The notes under the pieces were generated by a model. It did not search any database. It saw nothing but the letters and a program-made list of their open reading frames with translations, and was not told the DNA's origin. A DNA stretch of 41,621 nucleotides, taken from positions 1-41,621 of the forward strand of contig JAUWBY010000001.1 of the NCBI GenBank assembly GCA_030609605.1, given 5' to 3'. The DNA comes from Candidatus Eiseniibacteriota bacterium. Lineage in GTDB: Bacteria > Joyebacterota > Joyebacteria > Joyebacterales > Joyebacteraceae. Position 1 is the first letter of the stretch; the number at the start of each line of letters is the position of its first letter. Made by a program: the position numbers and the translations under genes. Below, in pieces: positions 19,913 through 35,710 of this stretch.

Positions 19913-20482
19913 CTAGATTCCCATTCCGCTGGGAACGGGCCGTGGAGGAACCGTGCCGCCGGGCATACACATCATGCGCCCACGGCCACCCATTGCGCCA
20001 CCCGGGCCGCGGTTCATGCCACCGCGACCGCCCATACCGCCATGACCCATCTGCATCCCGAAGCCCTTATCAAACAGCAACTTCTGGTCATCCGTCAGGA
20101 TCTTTCGGACCGCAACGTGCTGACGGATCCTTAGCTTCATCATCTCGGCGCGCTCTTTGGAGATGTCATCAATCATGCGCTCGAGCTTCCCGAAGTCGGG
20201 TTCGTCGCCCGTTATCAATTCGCGCATCTCAAGATGCATGACCTTGATCCGGTTGGAAAGCTCAACACGTTGTTCGTCGAAGCCGCTCCGGATCTCCTGC
20301 ATCTTCTCCTGCTGCGCCTCTGTGAACGCCGGCATCGCGCCCGGCCCCATCGCCGGACCGCCGCGCATGCCGCCGCCCATGGCTCCGCTCTGGAAACCTC
20401 TACCCGCGGTCGCCGGCACGGCTGCCATTGCTGCCATCGCCAGAGCGAGCATTACTACTATGAGGCCTTTCTTCCTGCTCAT
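19913..20482 (-). CDS. Spy/CpxP/ZraP-family periplasmic protein (LTXXQ motif, periplasmic heavy-metal-sensor type) with Gly/Met/His-rich ends
   Basis: Signal peptide (MSRKKGLIVVMLALAMAAMAAVPATA). Two LTXXQ-type motifs (FTEAQQEKM, LTDDQKLLF) flank a helical core. The tails are rich in G, M and H. Confidence 0.7.
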   Translation of the reverse strand: MSRKKGLIVVMLALAMAAMAAVPATAGRGFQSGAMGGGMRGGPAMGPGAMPAFTEAQQEKMQEIRSGFDEQRVELSNRIKVMHLEMRELITGDEPDFGKLERMIDDISKERAEMMKLRIRQHVAVRKILTDDQKLLFDKGFGMQMGHGGMGGRGGMNRGPGGAMGGRGRMMCMPGGTVPPRPVPSGMGI

Positions 20483-20616
20483 CGTCTTCTCCCTTCGGAA
20501 GTGGGAGGTCTCGCCTCCCGGATTCTTCTACTGTTTGGCTGTCCTTCCGGCCGGCATCGTCAGCCGCATGATATCTCGGAATGCCGGCCGGAGGAACTCT
20601 CTCACACCCCTTCTAC

Positions 20617-20632
20617 AGCAACCGAGGTGCCA
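20617..20632 (-). promoter_or_regulatory. Sigma54 (-24/-12) promoter for the Spy/ZraP-like gene
   Basis: Minus strand reads TGGCAC-CTCGG-TTGCT, a perfect match to TGGCAC-N5-TTGCW. Located in the 329-bp gap after the sigma54-dependent response regulator gene and about 135 nt upstream of the ATG at 20482. Confidence 0.65.
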
Positions 20633-20811
20633 ATCGTGTCGGAACGATGTAGAGCTCTCGTCTGTGCGACATAACATCTGATGGAACAGAACGTTACGCG
20701 ACTAGCTTTTTCGGATGAGACGTGCCCTGAAGACCAGGGAAGGACCTTGGCGTGAAGGAATTACCCACTTCGGGAGGTAGAGCGGCTTGGAGGTGCGCAG
20801 AATCTGCGCGG

Positions 20812-27602: not shown

Positions 27603-30116
27603 TCACCACCCCCTCTCCCGCACATTCCCTTTGCCACCTGCTTCTTCCCGCGGGCGATCCCGCACATTTGCCCCGCCACCTGCTTCCTCCCGCGGGCGAT
27701 CTCCCACACTTGCCGCGCCGCCTGCCTCGCTTCGCCCTCGTCCACGCAAGCGTCTCCTCTGCTCCTCAGGCAACCCCGCGTATAGCCACATTGAAAGCTC
27801 AATGATCCTCCTCCTGACGGAGCACCGCACCGCATCGTGCCCCGACGCTTCTCCCGGCATCGTATCAAGATCGTGATGGCAGGGTCCTCCGCACAGGTCG
27901 TGCGCCCAGCAGTCCAGACAAGCGGACGATGCCGCTCGCAGCTTCTTGAGCAACGACGTGATCGCCCGGCGGTCGATGCCGCTTGCCACGTGCCCGACGG
28001 CGAAGCGATCGTCACCTGCGAATCTGTGGCAGAGATAGAGCGTCCCGTCCGTCGCAACAGAGAGATAGCGCGCCCCGGCGCCACACGGAGAATCGCGGCG
28101 AGACCCGCGCGCCAGGAGCGCCATCGGCTCGGTGAAACTGCTCACCGATGGGCGCGAGCCGCTCAACAGTACATCACGTTCCGCTTGGGCAAGCGCTTCG
28201 AACTCAGAGCAGAGCCGCTCCGCGAACCCCCTGCTCATGCTCGATCCGCTCACAGGAGCCAGATGCACGGTGGAAAACCCGAGCCCCGCAAGATGCGCCA
28301 CAAGCTCGGTCAGAGGTTCTGACGACTCCGTCACCGTCGCCCTAACCCCCACGCTGAAACCGGGAGGCAGCTCCGTCAGGTTGCGGACGATACTCGCGTA
28401 GGACCCCTTGCCGTTGCGAAAGCGTCGGTTCGCATCGTGGTCCTCTTCGCAGCCGTCCATGCTGATCAGACAATCGATCCCGAGCTCGGCGAGAAGCCTG
28501 GCGGTGCCGGGAGTGAGCAGTGTTCCATTCGTTGTCATATGGAAACGGATATTCCGCCCCACCTCCGTGGCACGCTCTCGCGCGTAGCGAACGACTGGAC
28601 GAAGCATGTCCGTCGCGAGGAGCGGCTCTCCTCCAAAGAAGATTATCGATATCTCCGGCTCTCCGAACGACTCGCGTATCAGGAGGTCAATAGCCCTGAA
28701 AGCCACGTCCTCCGCCATGGTCTCACCAGCCGCGTTCTCTCTACGACGTCCGGCGCCCGTCTGTGAAGCTGCCAATGTTCCGAGGTAGCAGTAGGTACAC
28801 GAGAGATTGCAGGCGTTGCTCACGTTAAGCGCCAGCGATTTGATGGAGATCTCGATCTCTGAGGCCCGTCTCCCGCTCCGACGGGGCTTCCCCCCCGGCG
28901 CCAATCCCCCGACTTCGGAGATGGCGGTTTGGACGGAGGCAGCGCCGTGGTTGAGTTCGAGGACCGCTCGCTCGGTCACGGGCGCTCTTTTCGCGAGCCA
29001 CCTGATGGTATCTGCCGCGACGGCATCTGCTTCAAAAAGGAAGCCGGACGCGGGATCGAACGCGAATTCCTTTCCGTCCACGCTGAATGTGTGGAGCTCG
29101 CGCCCTGCGAGGATCGCGTGCGCGAGTGAGTCGTCCGGTTCTCGGCCGTTCGGGTTTTCTCCGCGCCCTGGACTGCTCGCGGCGGCCAGCGCCTCGAGTG
29201 AGAGGCGACGGGTCATTCTGGCGTTGCCCGAGGTGGCATCGTGAAGCACAGAGCTCAGGAACTCAGCAAGCTGCGGACAAGGCAGACTCTCAGCTGTACT
29301 GAGAGCCTGCGCATAACACGATTCCATTGTCCCGGTGACTCTCTCAAGAGCACCTGACTCGGCCGCCATCCTGAGAAGACCTCTCGCAGAGAGCTTCTCC
29401 GGAAGCTCCTTGCACCCACTCCACGTGAGGAGCATCCACACGGTCGCCGACGGGCGGCCAGCCGCCAGATCCTCACCAAGATCGACCAGATCATCAGCCA
29501 ACTGGTAACCGGCGTGGTACTCCTCGATGAGTCGCTCCATAGCAGGAAGAAGATCCGGGCGCCCGCCAAGAGTGGCTACCGCGGCGGCGGTAACCTTCAG
29601 CGGTGACATCTTCCTTCCCAGAAGGAGAAGCGTACTGTCGAGTTCATCGTCCCCAACGGCTCTGACGCCTCCCTCCTTGTGATGAACCGACTGTTCCCAC
29701 TCGAGGCTCAAGAAGTACTCGTCCATGAACCGGTCGTAGTGCTGCCAGAATTCGCTCTCCCCCGGGAAGAGCTCAGCGTACAGGCGGACGAACTCGCACA
29801 GACACCTGTCGCAAAAGTCGAGCGCTCTCGGGTCGACGCCCCTTGTGCCGTCCAAGAGCTCGTCCTGCGAGAGGAAATGCGCCGTGGCGAATGCGTTCCC
29901 CAGAGACATGACTCTCGCCGCATCGCCGTCGCCTTCAAAACGGATGCCTTCTACCAGAAGGAATGGGAGAGTAACGGCGATGTTCGTCGATCTGATGCCC
30001 CTGTCCGACATCGCGCTCTCCAATCGAAAGCGACTGACGGACGACTCAAAGCCGGTCGCGACGCGGCGCAATTCCTCTCGCATGTCGAATCGGCTTTGCG
30101 TGCTGGATGACGACAC
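27603..30116 (-). CDS. Fusion protein: N-terminal polyprenyl-synthase-like (class I isoprenoid fold) domain + RRE-like segment + radical SAM + SPASM domain + repeat tail
   Basis: - aa 78-89: AHFLSQDELLD, FARM-like.
- aa 203-217: GYQLADDLVDLGEDL, SARM-like DDxxD, about 123 aa after the first motif.
- aa 341-375: HTFSVDGKEFAFDPASGFLFEADAVAADTIRWL, a PqqD/RRE-like N-extension common in peptide-modifying rSAM enzymes.
- aa 435-442: CNLSCTYC (CX3CX2C, nt ~28791-28814).
- GGEPLL follows.
- SPASM: CGAG...LYLCH plus CLDCWAHDLCGGPC (CX2CX5CX3C).
- Start uncertain: GTG 30116, ATG 30083 or ATG 30011. Confidence 0.85.
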   Translation of the reverse strand: MSSSSTQSRFDMREELRRVATGFESSVSRFRLESAMSDRGIRSTNIAVTLPFLLVEGIRFEGDGDAARVMSLGNAFATAHFLSQDELLDGTRGVDPRALDFCDRCLCEFVRLYAELFPGESEFWQHYDRFMDEYFLSLEWEQSVHHKEGGVRAVGDDELDSTLLLLGRKMSPLKVTAAAVATLGGRPDLLPAMERLIEEYHAGYQLADDLVDLGEDLAAGRPSATVWMLLTWSGCKELPEKLSARGLLRMAAESGALERVTGTMESCYAQALSTAESLPCPQLAEFLSSVLHDATSGNARMTRRLSLEALAAASSPGRGENPNGREPDDSLAHAILAGRELHTFSVDGKEFAFDPASGFLFEADAVAADTIRWLAKRAPVTERAVLELNHGAASVQTAISEVGGLAPGGKPRRSGRRASEIEISIKSLALNVSNACNLSCTYCYLGTLAASQTGAGRRRENAAGETMAEDVAFRAIDLLIRESFGEPEISIIFFGGEPLLATDMLRPVVRYARERATEVGRNIRFHMTTNGTLLTPGTARLLAELGIDCLISMDGCEEDHDANRRFRNGKGSYASIVRNLTELPPGFSVGVRATVTESSEPLTELVAHLAGLGFSTVHLAPVSGSSMSRGFAERLCSEFEALAQAERDVLLSGSRPSVSSFTEPMALLARGSRRDSPCGAGARYLSVATDGTLYLCHRFAGDDRFAVGHVASGIDRRAITSLLKKLRAASSACLDCWAHDLCGGPCHHDLDTMPGEASGHDAVRCSVRRRIIELSMWLYAGLPEEQRRRLRGRGRSEAGGAASVGDRPREEAGGGANVRDRPREEAGGKGNVRERGW
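27613..27740. repeat. About three tandem 42-bp units at the 3' end of the radical SAM fusion gene (14-aa GANVRDRPREEAGG repeats)
   Basis: Read directly: ...GCCACCTGCTTCTTCCCGCGGGCGATCCCGCACATTTGCCCC / GCCACCTGCTTCCTCCCGCGGGCGATCTCCCACACTTGCCGC..., with a more degenerate third copy. Confidence 0.8.
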
Positions 30117-30243
30117 GGTTGGAATGACCCATTGGGGAAGATCTGATGATCAGGAGCTGAGTACACGGGGTTGGAATCCGCGACCGGGAGCGGGCGTCAC
30201 CGCTGACCACAGGTCGGCAGCACTTCCTGGAGAGCCTGCTGGA

Positions 30244-30259
30244 AGCAAGTTGCTGACCA
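30244..30259 (-). promoter_or_regulatory. Weak sigma54-like -24/-12 element proximal to the radical SAM gene
   Basis: Minus strand reads TGGTCA-GCAAC-TTGCT. GG-N10-GC spacing is correct and the -12 TTGCT is perfect, but the -24 hexamer has three mismatches. About 130 nt upstream of GTG 30116. Confidence 0.3.
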
Positions 30260-30312
30260 GTTCGTGTGGAGCTCACACAAACTCCATCGCAGGCAGCACG
30301 TCCGGGCACAAT

Positions 30313-30451
30313 ACAGAGTGCGGCGTGGCCTCATGACCACGCCGCGCTCTGTCACAACTGTCTACTTGGATTACACACTGCACTGCTCTATGGCTCCCGA
30401 GCATAGAGCAGCCGGCAGGCGGACTGTGGAAGAGCGTTCGCGCCTGCCGGC
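30313..30451 (-). other. Three consecutive strong hairpins/inverted repeats in the non-coding leader region
   Basis: - 30313-30352: 16-bp stem with one mismatch (ACAGAGTGCGGCGTGG / CCACGCCGCGCTCTGT).
- 30383-30411: perfect 10-bp arms CTGCTCTATG / CATAGAGCAG.
- 30411-30451: perfect 10-bp GC-rich arms GCCGGCAGGC / GCCTGCCGGC with a 21-nt loop. Confidence 0.6.
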
Positions 30452-30873
30452 CTCGTGGGCTGGATCCCATCCTTGGGAGGAGAGTGCTTCTGACCAAGGT
30501 CGCCGTTCGGATGGAATCCGGGTGGAGAGCAGTTGGTGTTGCCGCGTCGGTGTCACTCCTTGCTGTTGCCGGTTCTTCTTCTCTATTCCCTACAGCTACC
30601 GCCAGGTGCCAGGAGATTCGGTAGCTGTCTAGATTCAGCCGAGGAACGGCGAGGCTATTCCGATGAGCAGGATTACTATTATCACTTTGACTCTCGCCGC
30701 GCTCGGCATGGCTACTCTCTCTGTTCTATGTCATCTCCCCGATGAATCCGGAGAGCCTGTGGTTCCTGGAAGGGAGGAGGGCCATAGAGCGACCGGACTC
30801 GCCCCCCTGATAATTTCACTCACGGCCACACCCCCTTCCAAGTCCTGTTGTCAAAGTTCTAACCCCTCTAAGG

Positions 30874-30888
30874 GCAGGGATCGTGCCA
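30874..30888 (-). promoter_or_regulatory. Sigma54-type -24/-12 promoter motif, distal, facing the RiPP-like operon
   Basis: Minus strand reads TGGCAC-GATCC-CTGC. The -24 TGGCAC is perfect, GG-N10-GC spacing is correct, and the -12 is CTGC versus TTGC. Confidence 0.45.
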
Positions 30889-31200
30889 GTTCGTGCTGAT
30901 TGACTCCCCATTCGTGCACCTGTGCAGTACCGCTAACCCGCTTACTGGCCGTAAGTTACGCTGCTGACGATTTAGGCGGCCAACACTCAGCAAAAGGAAC
31001 GGTGGCAGGTTCTTGACACCGCACGACCGATGCAGATGGGATTCCTGGTAACTTCTCCCTACAGCAGTGGTTACGCGACCGTCACGTTTGTGACGCTCTG
31101 TCGAAGATCTGACGGTCTCGGAAGCCTTCCGGTGACGCGCGGATGCCTGTCGAAGACCTGTCGGTGCTGATGCGGCCGGCCGGACAGCTCGGAGCGACAA

Positions 31201-31227
31201 CGAAAACCGGGCCGCTTCCGGCCCGGT
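31201..31227 (-). terminator. Rho-independent terminator of the TPR/sigma54-activator gene
   Basis: Minus strand reads ACCGGGCCG-GAAG-CGGCCCGGT followed by TTTTCG. Lies about 70 nt downstream of the stop at 31298. Confidence 0.6.
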
Positions 31228-31297
31228 CTGGGAACATCGTTTCGACGCTGCTGCCGCATCGACGAGAGGCTCGCACCGCCCCGCTGAGACACCACGC

Positions 31298-34200
31298 CTA
31301 TCCGATTCCGTGCTTCTTCATCTTCGCGTGCAGGCCTGTGCGCGACATCCCCAGGATCTGAGCTGCCTGCTGCTTGTTCCACCCCGTGCGATCCAGCGCT
31401 TCGAGAATCCGGCTTCGTTCCAACGTAACGACCTCATCCTTGAGCGACCGGGGGCGACTCTCATCGAGTTCGCTACCGGCTCCACCTTCAGCGCGAACCT
31501 TCAGTTCGGGGCTCATCTTGTCGATGCCGATGGTCTCGCCGCTCTTGGTGAGCGCGACACCGCGACGGACCTCATTCTCCAACTCCCGCACGTTGTTCCC
31601 CCGCCATCCATACCTGAGGAAGAGCTCCTTCACTTCCCGGCTGAACCCCACGATCGCTTTTCCCTCACGCTTCGCGTAGTACTCAAGGAAGTGATCCATC
31701 AGAGCCGGGATATCTTCAGGGCGGTCCCTCAGTGGTGGAAGCTCAACTGTAATAGTGCAGAGTCTGTAGAAGAGGTCTCGCCTGAATCCGCCGTTCTCCA
31801 CCTCCTGCCGAAGGTCCTTGTTCGTGGCGGAGATGACACGGGCGTTGCTCGTCCTCGTAACGCTTTCTCCTACCCTCCGGAACTCGCCATTCTGGAGGAA
31901 TCTCAGAAGCTTCACTTGAAGCTCGGGACTCATCTCCCCAATCTCATCGAGGAAGAGCGTTCCATCCGCCGCAGCCTCGACAAGGCCCTGGCGATCCCGG
32001 TCGGCATCCGTGAAAGCGCCGCGGACGTGGCCGAAGAGCTCGCTCTCCTGGAGATTCGGAGCGATGGCCCCGGAGTTCAGAGCCACGAACCTCCCGGTCG
32101 CCGTCCTGCTGCCGGAGTGAATGGCCTTCGCGATCAGTTCCTTGCCCACACCTGATTCGCCACGTATTAGAACCGGCACGTGGCTGTCCTTCAGCTGCTC
32201 GACGGTCGCGAGTATCTGGATCATCTCGGGACTTCGGGTGATAAGCCCGACGGTCTCCGCTGAGTCAAGGAGTCTGTCGGCCTCCTCCCCTGTCGACCGC
32301 GCGACGATTGACCCACCGACTCGAGAATGCATGAGGCCGAGCATCCGACCGACAGCGCCGACGAACTCCACGTCGCTCTGTGTGAAAGCAACTGATCTGT
32401 CGGTCCGGGAGCGGTCTACGTACACAAGGTAGACTGGTTTGCTGTCGAGGCCGACTTCCGCCGGTATCAGCGCAAGCGCGCCGACTTCGGATGGAGTGAA
32501 AGCGCCGTCTGAGTGTCCATTGCTGACGACTAGAGGACGCGAGTGGCCCCGTTTCGAAACGGTCGTGCGCACAAAGCGGCATGCGTCCGAGACTCCTCGT
32601 CCCGTTCTGTCGACAGACGTCACCACCGACGGCGTCCCTCCGTCCACAACCTGAAGGAGGACCAGCCGGTCGACGGACAGCGCACCTGCCAACTCCCCGG
32701 CGAAGCTATGCAGATCGTCGGGGCTCGGTTCGGCCGTCTCGAGAAATCTATAGCCCTCTGCAATCAGTGCGTACCGACCCCGGCGCGCGATTCCTGCGTC
32801 AGCCAGAGCCACATCCAGTTCCATGAGTGCGGCATCGATCTCGGCGAGACCGTGGCAGTCGTGCGCCACCTCAAACCTGAGTCTTGCACTCTCCAACCAC
32901 CTGCGCGCGCGATCCGGCAATCCGCTCGCCTTGAGCGCCTTGCCGCGTTCGAACTCACATCGCGCCACCCAGTTCGGGAGGCCGATGCGCGCAAAGGCTG
33001 CGGCCGCGGACGAAAGCCGGGCCTCTATGAGATCGATCGGCGGTTCGTCACCAGTCGACGATTCCCTGAGACCAATGCCTTCCGCGAGCGCTGCCCTTGC
33101 CAGCTCGAACGATTCCCCAATGCGACGCAGTATCTCCTCGGCCCTATGGATGAGAACCTCGGCAGTCGTCCGTTCACCCTTGGCGTAGCAGACGCTGGCC
33201 AGCACGCGGAGTGTTGCACCCTCTTCGAGGCTGTCGTTGATCTCGCGCGTGAGCTTGATGCCGTCCGAGCAGTCACGCTCGGCCTCGTCGAACCGACCGA
33301 GTTCCATGTAGACCTCGGCGCGCCGTCTCAGAACCTCACCGACGACATCGCTGTTCGACGAAAGCCTGTACGCGCACCCGAGAGCTCGATTGAGGCTCCT
33401 CAGCGCCTGCTCGTGCTCGCCGCGGTCCATCTCCAAATGGCCGATGAACTCCAAAGCCAGAGCTTCAGCCCTCAGGTACCCCTTCTCCTGGCTTGCAGAA
33501 AGGGCGTTCTGGAAAAGTCTCTGTGCCTCGCCCCACTCACGCCGTATACGGAGGATGTTACCCAGTGCGGACTCCGCTGCCACGAGGCCACGAGTCGCAC
33601 CGATCCGCCCGTAGAGGCTGCGCGCTTCGTTCAGCTTCTCCTCCGCTTCGCTCCAGCGGGAGAGCTTGTAGAGGATGATACCGAGGTTGGTAAGACGGTC
33701 GGCGATCGCCATCGTGTGACCGAGCTTCCGGTCGATGGTGAGAGCGTTCTCGATGTACTCAAGCGCTCCGTGGAAGTCGCCCGACCGCTTGGCCAACACA
33801 CCGAGGTTGTTGTAGGCGGAGGCGAGTCCGGCTTCATCGCCAAGACGCTTCTGTGTTACCAGGTAGTCAGTGAAATAGTCGCGCGCCGCCTTGATGTTGC
33901 CCAGCTCAGCGTTTGCGATGCCGAGTACCTTGCCTGCCTCCGCCAGAAGCGGACTCTCGGCCCTCGTTTTCAGAATCTCGTAGGCCTTCTGGGCCGCCCG
34001 CAGCGCCTCATCGTAACGACCGCTCTCGATCTCGACGCGGGCGAGCACGACGTTCGCTTCAGCCCACGCTGATCCATCATCCTCGCTGAGATCGAGATCG
34101 TCCAGCTTCGCGCAGTAGCGCCTGGCGTCATCGTAGCCGCCGAGCCCCAGGTAGCACTTCGCGATGTTGACCAGGAGACCCGCAGACTCAGGGTCGGTGA

Positions 34201-34396
34201 GCTTCTCACGAAGCTCACCGGCCTCGGTCCGTTCGAAATAGCTCAGCGCGTCAGTGTAGCTGTCGGATTCGAGATAGACATCGCCCAGGCGCATGGCCGC
34301 GACTGCGGCGTCTCTGCCGCTCCGCGATTCGAGCGCTTTCTCGAACGCTTTCAACATCTCGCGTTCCGGCGCACTGTCATTTCTCTTGTTGCTCAT
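31298..34396 (-). CDS. Sigma54-dependent transcriptional activator with a large N-terminal TPR array and central sensory region (TPR + GAF-like + AAA+ + Fis HTH), 1032 aa
   Basis: The N-terminal ~480 aa carry repeated TPR-like A..Y......G....A...... helix pairs. AAA+ domain: Walker A GESGVGKE, GAFTDA (a GAFTGA variant), Walker B LFLDEIGEM, RVISATNKDL, LPPLRDRPEDI. C-terminal HTH: WNKQQAAQILGMSRTGL. Confidence 0.9.
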   Translation of the reverse strand: MSNKRNDSAPEREMLKAFEKALESRSGRDAAVAAMRLGDVYLESDSYTDALSYFERTEAGELREKLTDPESAGLLVNIAKCYLGLGGYDDARRYCAKLDDLDLSEDDGSAWAEANVVLARVEIESGRYDEALRAAQKAYEILKTRAESPLLAEAGKVLGIANAELGNIKAARDYFTDYLVTQKRLGDEAGLASAYNNLGVLAKRSGDFHGALEYIENALTIDRKLGHTMAIADRLTNLGIILYKLSRWSEAEEKLNEARSLYGRIGATRGLVAAESALGNILRIRREWGEAQRLFQNALSASQEKGYLRAEALALEFIGHLEMDRGEHEQALRSLNRALGCAYRLSSNSDVVGEVLRRRAEVYMELGRFDEAERDCSDGIKLTREINDSLEEGATLRVLASVCYAKGERTTAEVLIHRAEEILRRIGESFELARAALAEGIGLRESSTGDEPPIDLIEARLSSAAAAFARIGLPNWVARCEFERGKALKASGLPDRARRWLESARLRFEVAHDCHGLAEIDAALMELDVALADAGIARRGRYALIAEGYRFLETAEPSPDDLHSFAGELAGALSVDRLVLLQVVDGGTPSVVTSVDRTGRGVSDACRFVRTTVSKRGHSRPLVVSNGHSDGAFTPSEVGALALIPAEVGLDSKPVYLVYVDRSRTDRSVAFTQSDVEFVGAVGRMLGLMHSRVGGSIVARSTGEEADRLLDSAETVGLITRSPEMIQILATVEQLKDSHVPVLIRGESGVGKELIAKAIHSGSRTATGRFVALNSGAIAPNLQESELFGHVRGAFTDADRDRQGLVEAAADGTLFLDEIGEMSPELQVKLLRFLQNGEFRRVGESVTRTSNARVISATNKDLRQEVENGGFRRDLFYRLCTITVELPPLRDRPEDIPALMDHFLEYYAKREGKAIVGFSREVKELFLRYGWRGNNVRELENEVRRGVALTKSGETIGIDKMSPELKVRAEGGAGSELDESRPRSLKDEVVTLERSRILEALDRTGWNKQQAAQILGMSRTGLHAKMKKHGIG

Positions 34397-34446: not shown

Positions 34447-34797
34447 TCAGAGAATCCTGAACATCCAGTTCAGAATCATCCGCATCCGCATGCTCCACAG
34501 TTCGTTCTGAGCAACGAACTGCTTTTCAGTCTGTCCGTCAGCATCGTCTCCCGCGTCGCCCGACTCACCCGGAATCTCCGGATCCGGAGTTTCCTCTGGT
34601 TCGGCTGGCGTCGTGTTGCCCCAACGATCATCGTCACCACCTAGTTCCCCATCATCATCCCTGTACGTGATCGAAGAGAGCACCTGAGAGCTGCCGGACG
34701 GACCTCCCGTCCGAATAGCTGAGTTCGCGGCTCCAGCAACGAGTAGCGAACCCAGCGCGAGGACCACAAGCAGGATAAGTACCCACTTAATGCGCAT
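34447..34797 (-). CDS. Small secreted acidic protein (116 aa), hypothetical
   Basis: ATG at 34797 with GGGAGG upstream. Signal peptide MRIKWVLILLVVLALGSLLVAGAA, a D/E/G/P-rich middle, and a hydrophobic/basic C-terminus (ELWSMRMRMILNWMFRIL). Confidence 0.55.
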   Translation of the reverse strand: MRIKWVLILLVVLALGSLLVAGAANSAIRTGGPSGSSQVLSSITYRDDDGELGGDDDRWGNTTPAEPEETPDPEIPGESGDAGDDADGQTEKQFVAQNELWSMRMRMILNWMFRIL

Positions 34798-34942
34798 AGG
34801 TTACCTCCCTGTGGTTTCTGAGGAGTAGCTTTATGCTGCTACAGCATTTTCCGTCGCCGTAGGGTGTGCGTCGGCATGCCCCGCCGGCGGCGGGTTGACG
34901 CTACATGGGGGGGTCCAGTACATATTTCACGAGTCCAACTAA

Positions 34943-34972
34943 ATTTTAGCGCTTGCGCGGCTCTGATGTCAA
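34943..34972 (-). promoter_or_regulatory. Candidate sigma70-type promoter for the 34797 gene and the activator transcription unit
   Basis: Minus strand reads TTGACA (34972-34967), 18-nt spacer, TAAAAT (34948-34943), in an AT-rich patch about 145 nt upstream of ATG 34797. Confidence 0.35.
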
Positions 34973-35037
34973 CTAGAATCCTGTGTTTGGCCAAACCAAT
35001 TCAGGACTGTAGCCTTGTAGAGGCCTTGCCGCGTTGT

Positions 35038-35448
35038 TCAGAGCAGGAAATCCTCCAGCTCGTCCTGTTCCGTTCCCGAAGGAGGCTCGGTGGAGGGACG
35101 CGAAGCCTCCTCAGGATGCCCGCGTGTTGTAGCAGGATGTCCGGGTGCGACGACGGGTTCCTCCTCGTGCGCCTCCCCCGACCACCTCGCCAGGAGATCC
35201 AGCAGCTCCCGCACACACGCATCCGGTGTGGCCCAGTCCGCCTGGTACCAGATCCAGCGCCCCTCCCTCTCCTCGACAGCGAGCCCAGCATCCTTCAGCT
35301 TCCGGAGGTGATAGGAGACCTGCGGCTGCGTGAGTGCCAGCTCGACGACGATCTGCGAGACGTTCTTCCGCGCCCCGATGATTGCGAAGAGGACGCGTGA
35401 CCTCGTCGCGTCTCCCAGCTCACATATGATGTCGGCAAGTCGTGTCAT
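35038..35448 (-). CDS. ArsR/SmtB-family HTH transcriptional regulator with an acidic/Pro-rich C-terminal extension
   Basis: Winged-helix core: LGDATRSRVLFAI.......VSQIVVELALTQPQVSYHLRKLKDAGL. Start set at ATG 35448; the ORF is open to 35496. Confidence 0.75.
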   Translation of the reverse strand: MTRLADIICELGDATRSRVLFAIIGARKNVSQIVVELALTQPQVSYHLRKLKDAGLAVEEREGRWIWYQADWATPDACVRELLDLLARWSGEAHEEEPVVAPGHPATTRGHPEEASRPSTEPPSGTEQDELEDFLL

Positions 35449-35710
35449 GCGGTCCCTCGCGCAGATAGGCGCCCTTTTCTCATACCGCCGCGACAAGAGC
35501 TAACATCAGAGTGCACCGGCAGTCAAGCCCCACGGCTGCTTCCGGCGTCATACAGGAACGCCTTTCGCGCGAGAACGTACCCCCGGCCTGGCGCGGCTTT
35601 CAGAAACACGCATCGGGGTGTATGATAGAGGTGAGTCCGAAGACCAGTGCTGGACGACTTGGGCAATACGCGTCCACTGCGCAGTGAGACACACCCACAA
35701 GGATCTGGTA

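Follow-up and report, generated by a model that had tools for sequence, protein, structure and literature searches.

Here we analyse a long intergenic gap in a genome of Candidatus Eiseniibacteriota (GenBank assembly GCA_030609605.1, a 2.49-Mb metagenome assembly that is 79% complete). The window, by which we mean the whole stretch of DNA analysed, comprises positions 1 to 41,621 of the forward strand of contig JAUWBY010000001.1, and the gap occupies its positions 30117-31297. With 1181 nt it is the largest gap of the window, the next being 820, 408 and 329 nt and the median 24 nt, which bears out the unusual length reported for it in a first-pass annotation made from the letters alone. The gap carries an element that pairs as RNA and is conserved across genera, a 24-codon open reading frame (ORF) under coding selection, and sigma-54-type promoter and enhancer motifs, all on the minus strand. 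We read it, with a probability of about 0.6, as a sigma-54-dependent transcription unit in its own right, whose RNA is both structured and a messenger, followed by a promoter for the operon downstream. The genes on either side are:

31298-34396, minus strand: upstream flank, a 1032-amino-acid (aa) protein with tetratricopeptide (TPR) repeats, a sigma-54 interaction AAA+ domain and a Fis-type helix-turn-helix (HTH)
27603-30116, minus strand: downstream flank, an 837-aa fusion of a polyprenyl-synthase-like domain and a radical-SAM/SPASM peptide maturase, with a GTG start at 30116

Behind the radical-SAM gene come genes for two conserved Cys/Asp-rich peptides of 55-56 aa, a secreted FG-GAP propeller and an ABC-2 exporter, and the operon ends with a two-pass sensor kinase followed by an NtrC-type sigma-54 response regulator. 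Two sigma-54 activators are encoded in the window.

The order of activator gene, gap of 0.9-1.24 kb and radical-SAM gene is kept in all 11 of the first relatives compared, which belong to several genera. The core of the gap (~31125-30340) is conserved at the nucleotide level as well as or better than the flanking coding sequence, and the radical-SAM protein is only ~46% identical between genera. A BLAST search with 30395-30870 found the core, as a single copy per genome, in 30 of the 31 genomes of a phylum sample covering 8 genera; the lone genome with no match is 65% complete. An exact 20-mer from an invariant element described below retrieved 27 metagenome contigs. The architecture is shared by 25 of these, and metagenome contigs keep the whole cluster through the kinase and regulator; the other two matches (L114 and L130) are chance matches inside coding sequence. 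The first-pass annotation had made its proposal depend on conservation in related genomes, and these 30 genomes and 25 contigs provide it. With duplicates removed, the working set came to 44 distinct homologues, which are mutually related and belong to one phylum-level lineage, so that counts over them overstate independence.

A predicted folded RNA and its 24-codon reading frame

GC content is 0.55-0.575 at 30500-31100 against 0.59-0.67 in the flanks, in agreement with the central drop that had been described. The gap had also been called non-coding. That description stands for its ORFs of at least 60 aa, in which GC at third codon positions (GC3) is 0.52-0.63, with no gene-like codon-position pattern, against 0.69-0.76 in the neighbouring genes. 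It does not stand for the 24-codon ORF, a real conserved coding sequence. The elements of the predicted RNA, in minus-strand order, are as follows:

30765-30842, minus strand: helix H1 with apical stem-loop H1b; -40.9 kcal/mol, z = -3.0; folds in 9/9 representatives
30786-30807, minus strand: invariant 22-nt element GGGGGGCGAGUCCGGUCGCUCU (H1b); identical in 24/25 aligned sequences
30735-30755, minus strand: helix H2, just ahead of the ribosome-binding site; a 6-10 bp hairpin in ~40/44 sequences, with diverse stems
30715-30722, minus strand: Shine-Dalgarno-like AGAGAGAG, which most genera have as AUAGAGG; conserved at 5-9 nt ahead of the start codon
30635-30709, minus strand: 24-codon ORF, MPSAARVKVIIVILLIGIASPFLG; coding selection across homologues
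30638-30707, minus strand: helix Hs, in which the ORF's start region pairs with its stop region (GCCGAG..CGGCGAG with CUCGCCG..CUCGGC)
30592-30628, minus strand: helix H3, 5-7 nt past the stop codon; ACAGCU...AGCUGU stem with co-changing inner pairs across genera
30520-30591, minus strand: linker whose sequence varies, rich in A and poor in U (on average A 30%, C 29%, G 29%, U 11%)
30462-30519, minus strand: helix H4; 10-12 bp in 37/37 sequences, with compensating and G-U changes
30411-30452, minus strand: helix H5, GGCCGGCAGG/CCUGCCGGCC, with a CU-rich loop; 99.6% paired, 2 pairs changing on both sides
30383-30411, minus strand: helix H6; H5 and H6 together -39.5 kcal/mol, z = -3.0

Representatives of 8 genera, each folded as a single sequence, show the same helices. 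In one alignment of the homologues (A2), pair counts were limited to the helices that MAFFT aligned well, namely H1, H1b, Hs and H5. There, 97.4% of cells pair, compared with 36-55% when partners are slid, and 9 pairs change on both sides, compared with 3.7 in shuffles, none of 500 shuffles reaching 9. H2, H3 and H4 were judged from single-sequence folds of 37-44 sequences, nearly all of which form these helices at corresponding positions with differing stem sequences; the H4 stem, for example, takes the forms GGAUUCCAUCC/GGAUGGGAUCC, GCUCCGUCCC/GGGACGGAGC, GCCCGAUCCC/GGGAUCGGGU and GCUUCAUCCC/GGGAUGAAGC. Changes on both sides affect 5 of the 11 pairs of H1, which also has many G-U pairs, and Hs (-32.9 kcal/mol, z = -3.2) is 98-100% paired with compensating changes. 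In genus g2, where changes in an arm of Hs abolish the ATG, the last codons have changed synonymously to match.

The frequency of G-U pairs places the structure on the minus-strand transcript. Folded whole, the RNA of the window gives z = -2.67, with none of 100 shuffles folding as well, and its single helices reach z values of -3 to -4.5. Three strong hairpins that had been picked out from the letters are recovered at 30313-30352, 30383-30411 and 30411-30452 (z -3.0 to -4.5), and the suggestion of a structured RNA is supported, the same hairpins being found in 37-44 homologues from at least 8 genera with stems of differing sequence. In its 3′ part the RNA differs between genera by indels of 1, 2 and 5 nt, and in genus g8 a U-tract directly follows H5. 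One locus of genus g5 (L101) has ~45 additional nt of GCA/GCAGCAACG-type repeats in the H3-H4 linker (A2 columns ~338-406).

The start and stop of the 24-codon ORF occupy the same positions in 40 of the 44 homologues (ATG in 37, GTG in 3), and its indels, of 6 and 12 nt, are in-frame only. Over the last 17 codons of 28 distinct alleles, extra alleles at codon positions 1, 2 and 3 number 6, 5 and 29, and Ile, Ala, Ser, Pro, Leu and Gly are each written with 3-4 synonymous codons. The codons tested lie outside an antisense ORF, so the third-position signal belongs to the minus-strand frame. This pattern of substitution indicates that the ORF is translated. The hydrophobic ORF that the first-pass annotation had offered as a possibility is therefore present (30709-30635) and under coding selection; a conserved coding sequence, which the annotation would have counted against its own proposal, was found in this ORF (40 of 44 homologues), and the remaining region is not coding.

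The encoded peptide has a basic N-terminus and a single hydrophobic helix. Variation in its N-terminal half is conservative (K/R; V/I/M/A), and the segment VILLIGIASP(F/V)LG is almost invariant. No Pfam or NCBIfam family matches it. As a substrate of the radical-SAM (ranthipeptide-like) maturase it is ruled out, since it contains no Cys.

Other frames were considered and set aside. A plus-strand ORF of 78 aa (30663-30899) was rejected as a protein gene, its homologues ranging from 20 to 110 aa and its frame drifting after ~20 residues; it had seemed conserved because its wobble positions coincide with those of the small ORF. A longer ORF running across the 22-nt element would have to use three different frames in different genomes, genus g2 being the exception. 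It is these three frames relative to the small ORF that show the 22-nt element not to be coding. A scan for open-frame consistency was uninformative because the nucleotide sequence itself is conserved. In the g2 lineage (loci L098, L105, L110 and L129) a frame of 56-58 codons starts at ATGGATGCC inside H1, ~25 nt upstream of the tip element, and runs with in-frame indels to the same C-terminus, ...VVLLIGIASPFLG.

Family searches returned no known RNA. Over the window Rfam gave no match at gathering score and only chance-level matches at E up to 10, so the covariance search that the first-pass annotation had recommended matched no known family, and searches for tRNA and tmRNA found none. Second copies or complements of the 22-nt element were sought in the genome, with only control-level matches.

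Enhancer-type elements, sigma-54 motifs and the probable 3′ end of the RNA

Around the folded region lie the following features, again in minus-strand order:

31197-31228, minus strand: intrinsic terminator of the TPR sigma-54 activator gene; 11-bp GC stem, GAAG loop, UUUUCGUU tail
31147-31164, minus strand: fourth dyad-like copy, the distal member of a direct repeat; in a part of the gap that other genera do not conserve
31099-31114, minus strand: enhancer dyad A, CGTC-N8-GACA; exact pattern match, CGTC and GAC columns conserved in homologues
31080-31095, minus strand: enhancer dyad B, perfect palindrome CGTCAC-AAAC-GTGACG; matches on both strands, conserved in homologues
31048-31074, minus strand: GTAAC-N17-GTTAC element 1; TAAC and GTTA columns conserved
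31002-31019, minus strand: degenerate third dyad, GTC-N8-TGCC; partly conserved columns, CGTC...TG(C/T)C
30933-30959, minus strand: GTAAC-N17-GTTAG element 2; pattern and conserved columns
30874-30888, minus strand: sigma-54 promoter 1, TGGCAC-GATCC-CTGC (TGGCACGATCCCTGC); exact GG-N10-GC spacing, predicted start near 30862
30307-30352, minus strand: terminator-like hairpin ahead of promoter 2; 16-bp hairpin at 30352-30313, -34.3 kcal/mol, z = -4.5
30244-30259, minus strand: sigma-54 motif 2, TGGTCAGCAACTTGCT; 128 nt before the radical-SAM gene
30117-30243, minus strand: presumed 5′ untranslated region of the radical-SAM operon; conserved within the genus only

Several of these had been noted from the letters. 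The terminator of the upstream gene is at 31228-31197 (-25 kcal/mol, z = -3.87), and the direct-repeat pair (31098-31116 and 31147-31165, 89% identical) proves to be dyad A together with a genus-specific extra copy. Kept in all genera are the two adjacent CGTC-N8-GAC dyads, the degenerate third dyad and the two GTAAC-N17-GTTA elements. The GTAAC-N17-GTTA pattern has two sites in the window, both in the gap, where 0.03 are expected and none of 100 shuffles matches the count; element 1 may be the site of a second factor or a bending site. The conserved dyads stand ~115-225 bp upstream of promoter 1, within the range of ~80-250 bp for sigma-54 activator sites. Promoter 1 itself (TGGCA-N6-TGC) is found at the same distance from the RNA in 26/26 genome loci and most metagenome loci, and the genome has rpoN (a Sigma54_DBD match of 192.7 bits on contig C119). 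The complex enhancer that had been proposed is thus supported by conserved dyads and GTAAC-N17-GTTA elements upstream of a conserved -24/-12 promoter, and sigma-54-type motifs are present both at 30888-30874 and at 30259-30244.

The second of these motifs predicts a start near 30233, which leaves 117 nt to the GTG at 30116. A TGG-N8-TTGC(T/A) motif follows the ORF in 26/26 loci, usually once and in a few loci twice, where chance would give ~0.1 per sequence, as estimated from base composition. In six genera it lies 140-151 nt past the stop codon, in the H4 loop. In the genus of the window and in genus g5 the H4-loop copy is degenerate (UUGGUCAG being kept here), and a relocated motif is found beyond H6, 371-380 nt past the stop in this genus and 437-495 nt in g5. 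A motif that is retained even when relocated speaks for a second sigma-54 promoter, one that serves the operon. From the sequence we consider this probable and go no further, because the -24 half, TGGTC, is atypical and stays conserved in the H4 loop of sequences whose -12 half is missing. The two sigma-54 motifs are preceded on the minus strand by the same 10 nt (CACGAACTGG; 30257-30271 and 30886-30900), and this genus's relocated second promoter may accordingly have arisen by copying of the first promoter's -24 flank.

Between H6 and motif 2, the terminator-like hairpin is probably the end of the RNA in this genus. Its tail reads UAUUGUG here and the U-richer UUCUUUCUAUUUGUG in a congener (L004).

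Further features were seen elsewhere in the window. The gap of 329 nt (20483-20811) contains, at 20617-20632 on the minus strand, a perfect match to the sigma-54 consensus, TGGCACCTCGGTTGCT, directly after the response-regulator gene and ahead of the minus-strand gene 19913-20482; it is the cluster's third sigma-54 promoter candidate. Upstream of the activator gene, 34447-34797 (minus strand) encodes a protein of 116 aa that begins with a hydrophobic segment near its N-terminus and is rich in Asp, Glu and Gly in the middle; at least two metagenome loci have it upstream of the activator gene too (L111 and L128; 33-35% identity). The 820-nt gap (34798-35617) separates this signal-peptide/acidic protein gene from a divergent RlmN-like radical-SAM gene. 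The C-terminus of the radical-SAM fusion (27603-27720, minus strand) has a tandem repeat in the protein tail, ...GGAASVGDRPREEAGGGANVRDRPREEAGGKGNVRERGW.

A proposed dual-function transcript and the competing explanations

In the reading we prefer, transcription of the gap, the ends of the transcript, the binding partners of the enhancer and the functions of peptide and RNA are predicted from sequence as follows. The dyads and GTAAC elements are probably bound by the adjacent TPR-type activator, by the NtrC-type response regulator encoded at the operon end, or by both, which would fire promoter 1 at 30888-30874 and also promoter 2. The transcript would run from near 30862 to the hairpin near 30307 in this genus, ~0.55 kb, and would fold into eight conserved helices, one of them presenting the invariant 22-nt stem-loop at its tip. 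Hs, with the start codon at its base, would limit translation of the ORF, and the non-coding domains (the H1b tip, which is invariant, and the H4 and H5 loops, which are CU-rich) would have a regulatory function of their own. The second sigma-54-type promoter (30259-30244) would serve the radical-SAM peptide operon, and the RNA would be made together with it. The product would then be dual-function, a small-peptide mRNA with regulatory non-coding domains that is co-activated with the peptide operon. One mark of a dual-function RNA, an ORF under coding selection inside a structured RNA, is found here in the 6/5/29 distribution and the covarying helices around the ORF. We infer the regulatory role of the RNA because its non-coding parts are conserved beyond the needs of an mRNA, and the RNA unit looks like something other than simply the operon's leader.

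A number of observations weigh against this reading. The terminator-like hairpin has a weak U-tail, and the single hit in the terminator scan equals the shuffle expectation of 0.9. Six of the 8 genera have no terminator between RNA and operon and carry the second promoter inside H4; in those six the RNA may simply be the operon's long leader. Motif 2 has TGGTC rather than the usual TGGCA and overlaps a conserved RNA loop, so its conservation could be at the RNA level. Genus g2 has neither the ORF's ATG nor its ribosome-binding site and appears to read the 56-58-codon frame. The sense fold is more stable than the antisense fold in just 33 of 41 sequences (mean -7.3 kcal/mol), those of this genus not among them. 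No target, partner protein or repeated binding motif of the RNA was found. Finally, Hfq was found in 0/16 genomes of the family and CsrA in 1/16, a genome with 7% contamination. These counts also make a protein sponge of the CrcZ/RsmZ type unlikely, and RNA regulation in the phylum presumably works without Hfq and CsrA.

The alternative that survives best, though we think it rather improbable, makes promoter 1 the main promoter of the operon and all that follows it in the gap a plain 750-nt 5′ leader, with a small membrane protein as the first cistron that works with the exporter or the sensor kinase and helices that serve stability and translation control. The ORF is clearly coding, the operon's ABC-2 exporter and two-pass sensor kinase could both partner a small membrane peptide, and six genera lack any terminator-like element between ORF and radical-SAM gene. 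However, every locus retains a second sigma-54 motif, including those in which its position has shifted; the 22-nt element and the H4-H6 domain are conserved beyond what an ordinary leader needs; and in g1 (the genus of the window) and g5 a hairpin with a U-rich tail stands ahead of promoter 2.

The dual-function reading can also be extended, in a form we regard as unlikely, to a peptide-signalling circuit wired through sigma-54 in a Gram-negative candidate phylum, with the RNA as its effector arm and RNAIII/agr as its counterpart. After export, the modified Cys/Asp peptides would be detected by the periplasmic kinase, whereupon the NtrC-type regulator and the TPR activator would fire both promoters; and the ~0.5-kb RNA would act in trans through its tip and CU-rich loops while also delivering a membrane peptide. 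As a variant, the invariant peptide itself might be the TPR activator's ligand or a ribosome-arrest sensor.

An attenuator, also suggested in the first-pass annotation, is possible; in the form of a leader-peptide attenuator, in which the 24-codon ORF would be a cis-acting sensor like TnaC or the drug-sensing leaders, it seems to us a distinctly poor prospect. A ribosome pausing at SP(F/V)LG-UGA would melt Hs and H3 and so decide passage of H5/H6. The peptide looks the part, with a variable N-terminus and a nearly invariant stretch of 13 final residues, as in arrest peptides, and at 24 codons it would not yet have left the exit tunnel when translation terminates; H3 begins 5-7 nt past the stop codon in most genera, and g8 has its U-tract after H5. 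The downstream arrangement is less obliging: H5 lies ~190 nt beyond the stop codon, no alternative (anti-terminator) pairing was found in the RNA, and the linker (C 29%, G 29%) lacks the C-rich, G-poor composition of a Rho entry site. Moreover, in g1 and g5 promoter 2 is downstream of H5/H6, so that the operon bypasses these helices, and g2 seems to use the 56-58-codon frame.

We give very little credence to the idea that the peptide is a secreted short hydrophobic pheromone sensed by the activator's TPR domain, with autoinduction as in the SHP/Rgg and PapR/PlcR systems of Firmicutes. The peptide gene does adjoin a TPR-rich regulator and is under its presumed control, SHP peptides are similar in size and composition, and the operon encodes an ABC-2 exporter. 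But pheromones usually diversify and this peptide hardly varies between eight genera, the receptor would be a TPR and AAA+ sigma-54 activator rather than an HTH-TPR protein, processing or import genes were not identified, and the conserved RNA domains would be left unexplained. Least credible of all is a type I toxin-like membrane peptide silenced by mRNA structure: its 24 aa, basic N-terminus, hydrophobic helix and start codon at the base of a -33 kcal/mol hairpin would suit, but the locus is single-copy and strictly syntenic across the phylum behind a promoter of activator-dependent type, with no antisense or overlapping RNA gene evident and no conserved antisense frame or promoter.

Comparison with known systems

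The locus is of a known kind in its general form, namely an RNA or small-peptide unit that stands behind the gene of the sigma-54 activator controlling it; the gap unit is a new family, having no Rfam, Pfam or NCBIfam match. Among the known cases, Qrr with LuxO in Vibrio and GlmY with GlrR combine sigma-54 with an NtrC-type activator, and at least one copy adjoins the activator gene. These RNAs are ~100-200 nt, non-coding and, for Qrr, Hfq-dependent, and neither has an Rfam match in the gap. TnaC offers a different likeness, being a 24-codon leader ORF with a conserved proline-containing C-terminus, a UGA stop and a long spacer before the tna operon. In contrast, the gap has no Rho entry signature and a separate predicted operon promoter downstream, and we know of no sensing-residue pattern for its peptide.

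The closest likeness in position beside a sigma-54 activator gene is to CrcZ (and CrcY) with CbrB in Pseudomonas. CrcZ is a regulatory RNA gene of several hundred nt directly downstream of its own sigma-54 activator gene, with a promoter that depends on RpoN and the activator (PMC5113210). CrcZ is non-coding and sequesters Hfq/Crc via repeated A-rich motifs, whereas the gap RNA carries a translated ORF, shows no sequence or Rfam similarity to CrcZ and belongs to a family with Hfq in none of 16 genomes.

In form, a ~0.5-kb RNA of many hairpins with a small peptide, the unit is like RNAIII/hld of the staphylococcal agr system. RNAIII is 514 nt long with 14 stem-loops, encodes a 26-aa peptide and works without Hfq; a peptide-signalling locus supplies the response regulator that turns it on, and translation of its peptide is restrained by intramolecular structure (PMC12612679). 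The gap RNA differs in its sigma-54 promoter with enhancer, its phylum, its sequence and its tandem rather than divergent arrangement, and its peptide is a plain hydrophobic helix where that of hld is an amphipathic cytolysin. RNAIII is regulatory, a role that the gap RNA may share. In content and in its place at the head of an operon, the unit also resembles Pel/sagA of Streptococcus pyogenes, where a dual-function transcript of ~470 nt heads the operon for a ribosomally made, modified peptide (PMC12612679). Pel's encoded peptide, however, is the operon's own precursor; here the precursors follow the radical-SAM gene and the 24-aa peptide has no Cys.

The unit thus presents a candidate RNA family and a micro-protein that automatic annotation missed, conserved across a whole uncultured phylum and placed at the control point of an undescribed modified-peptide system; our literature search turned up nothing on radical SAM in Eisenbacteria. 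Two of its traits are unusual: a promoter motif sits in the loop of a conserved RNA helix, from which it has been relocated in two genera, and the start of the ORF pairs with the ORF's own stop. The layout, with its two activators, two sorts of upstream site, pair of sigma-54 promoters, RNA and peptide, can be rebuilt in a laboratory host and tested. It adds a further example to the sigma-54 activator genes that have a small RNA or peptide unit behind them, probably under their control.

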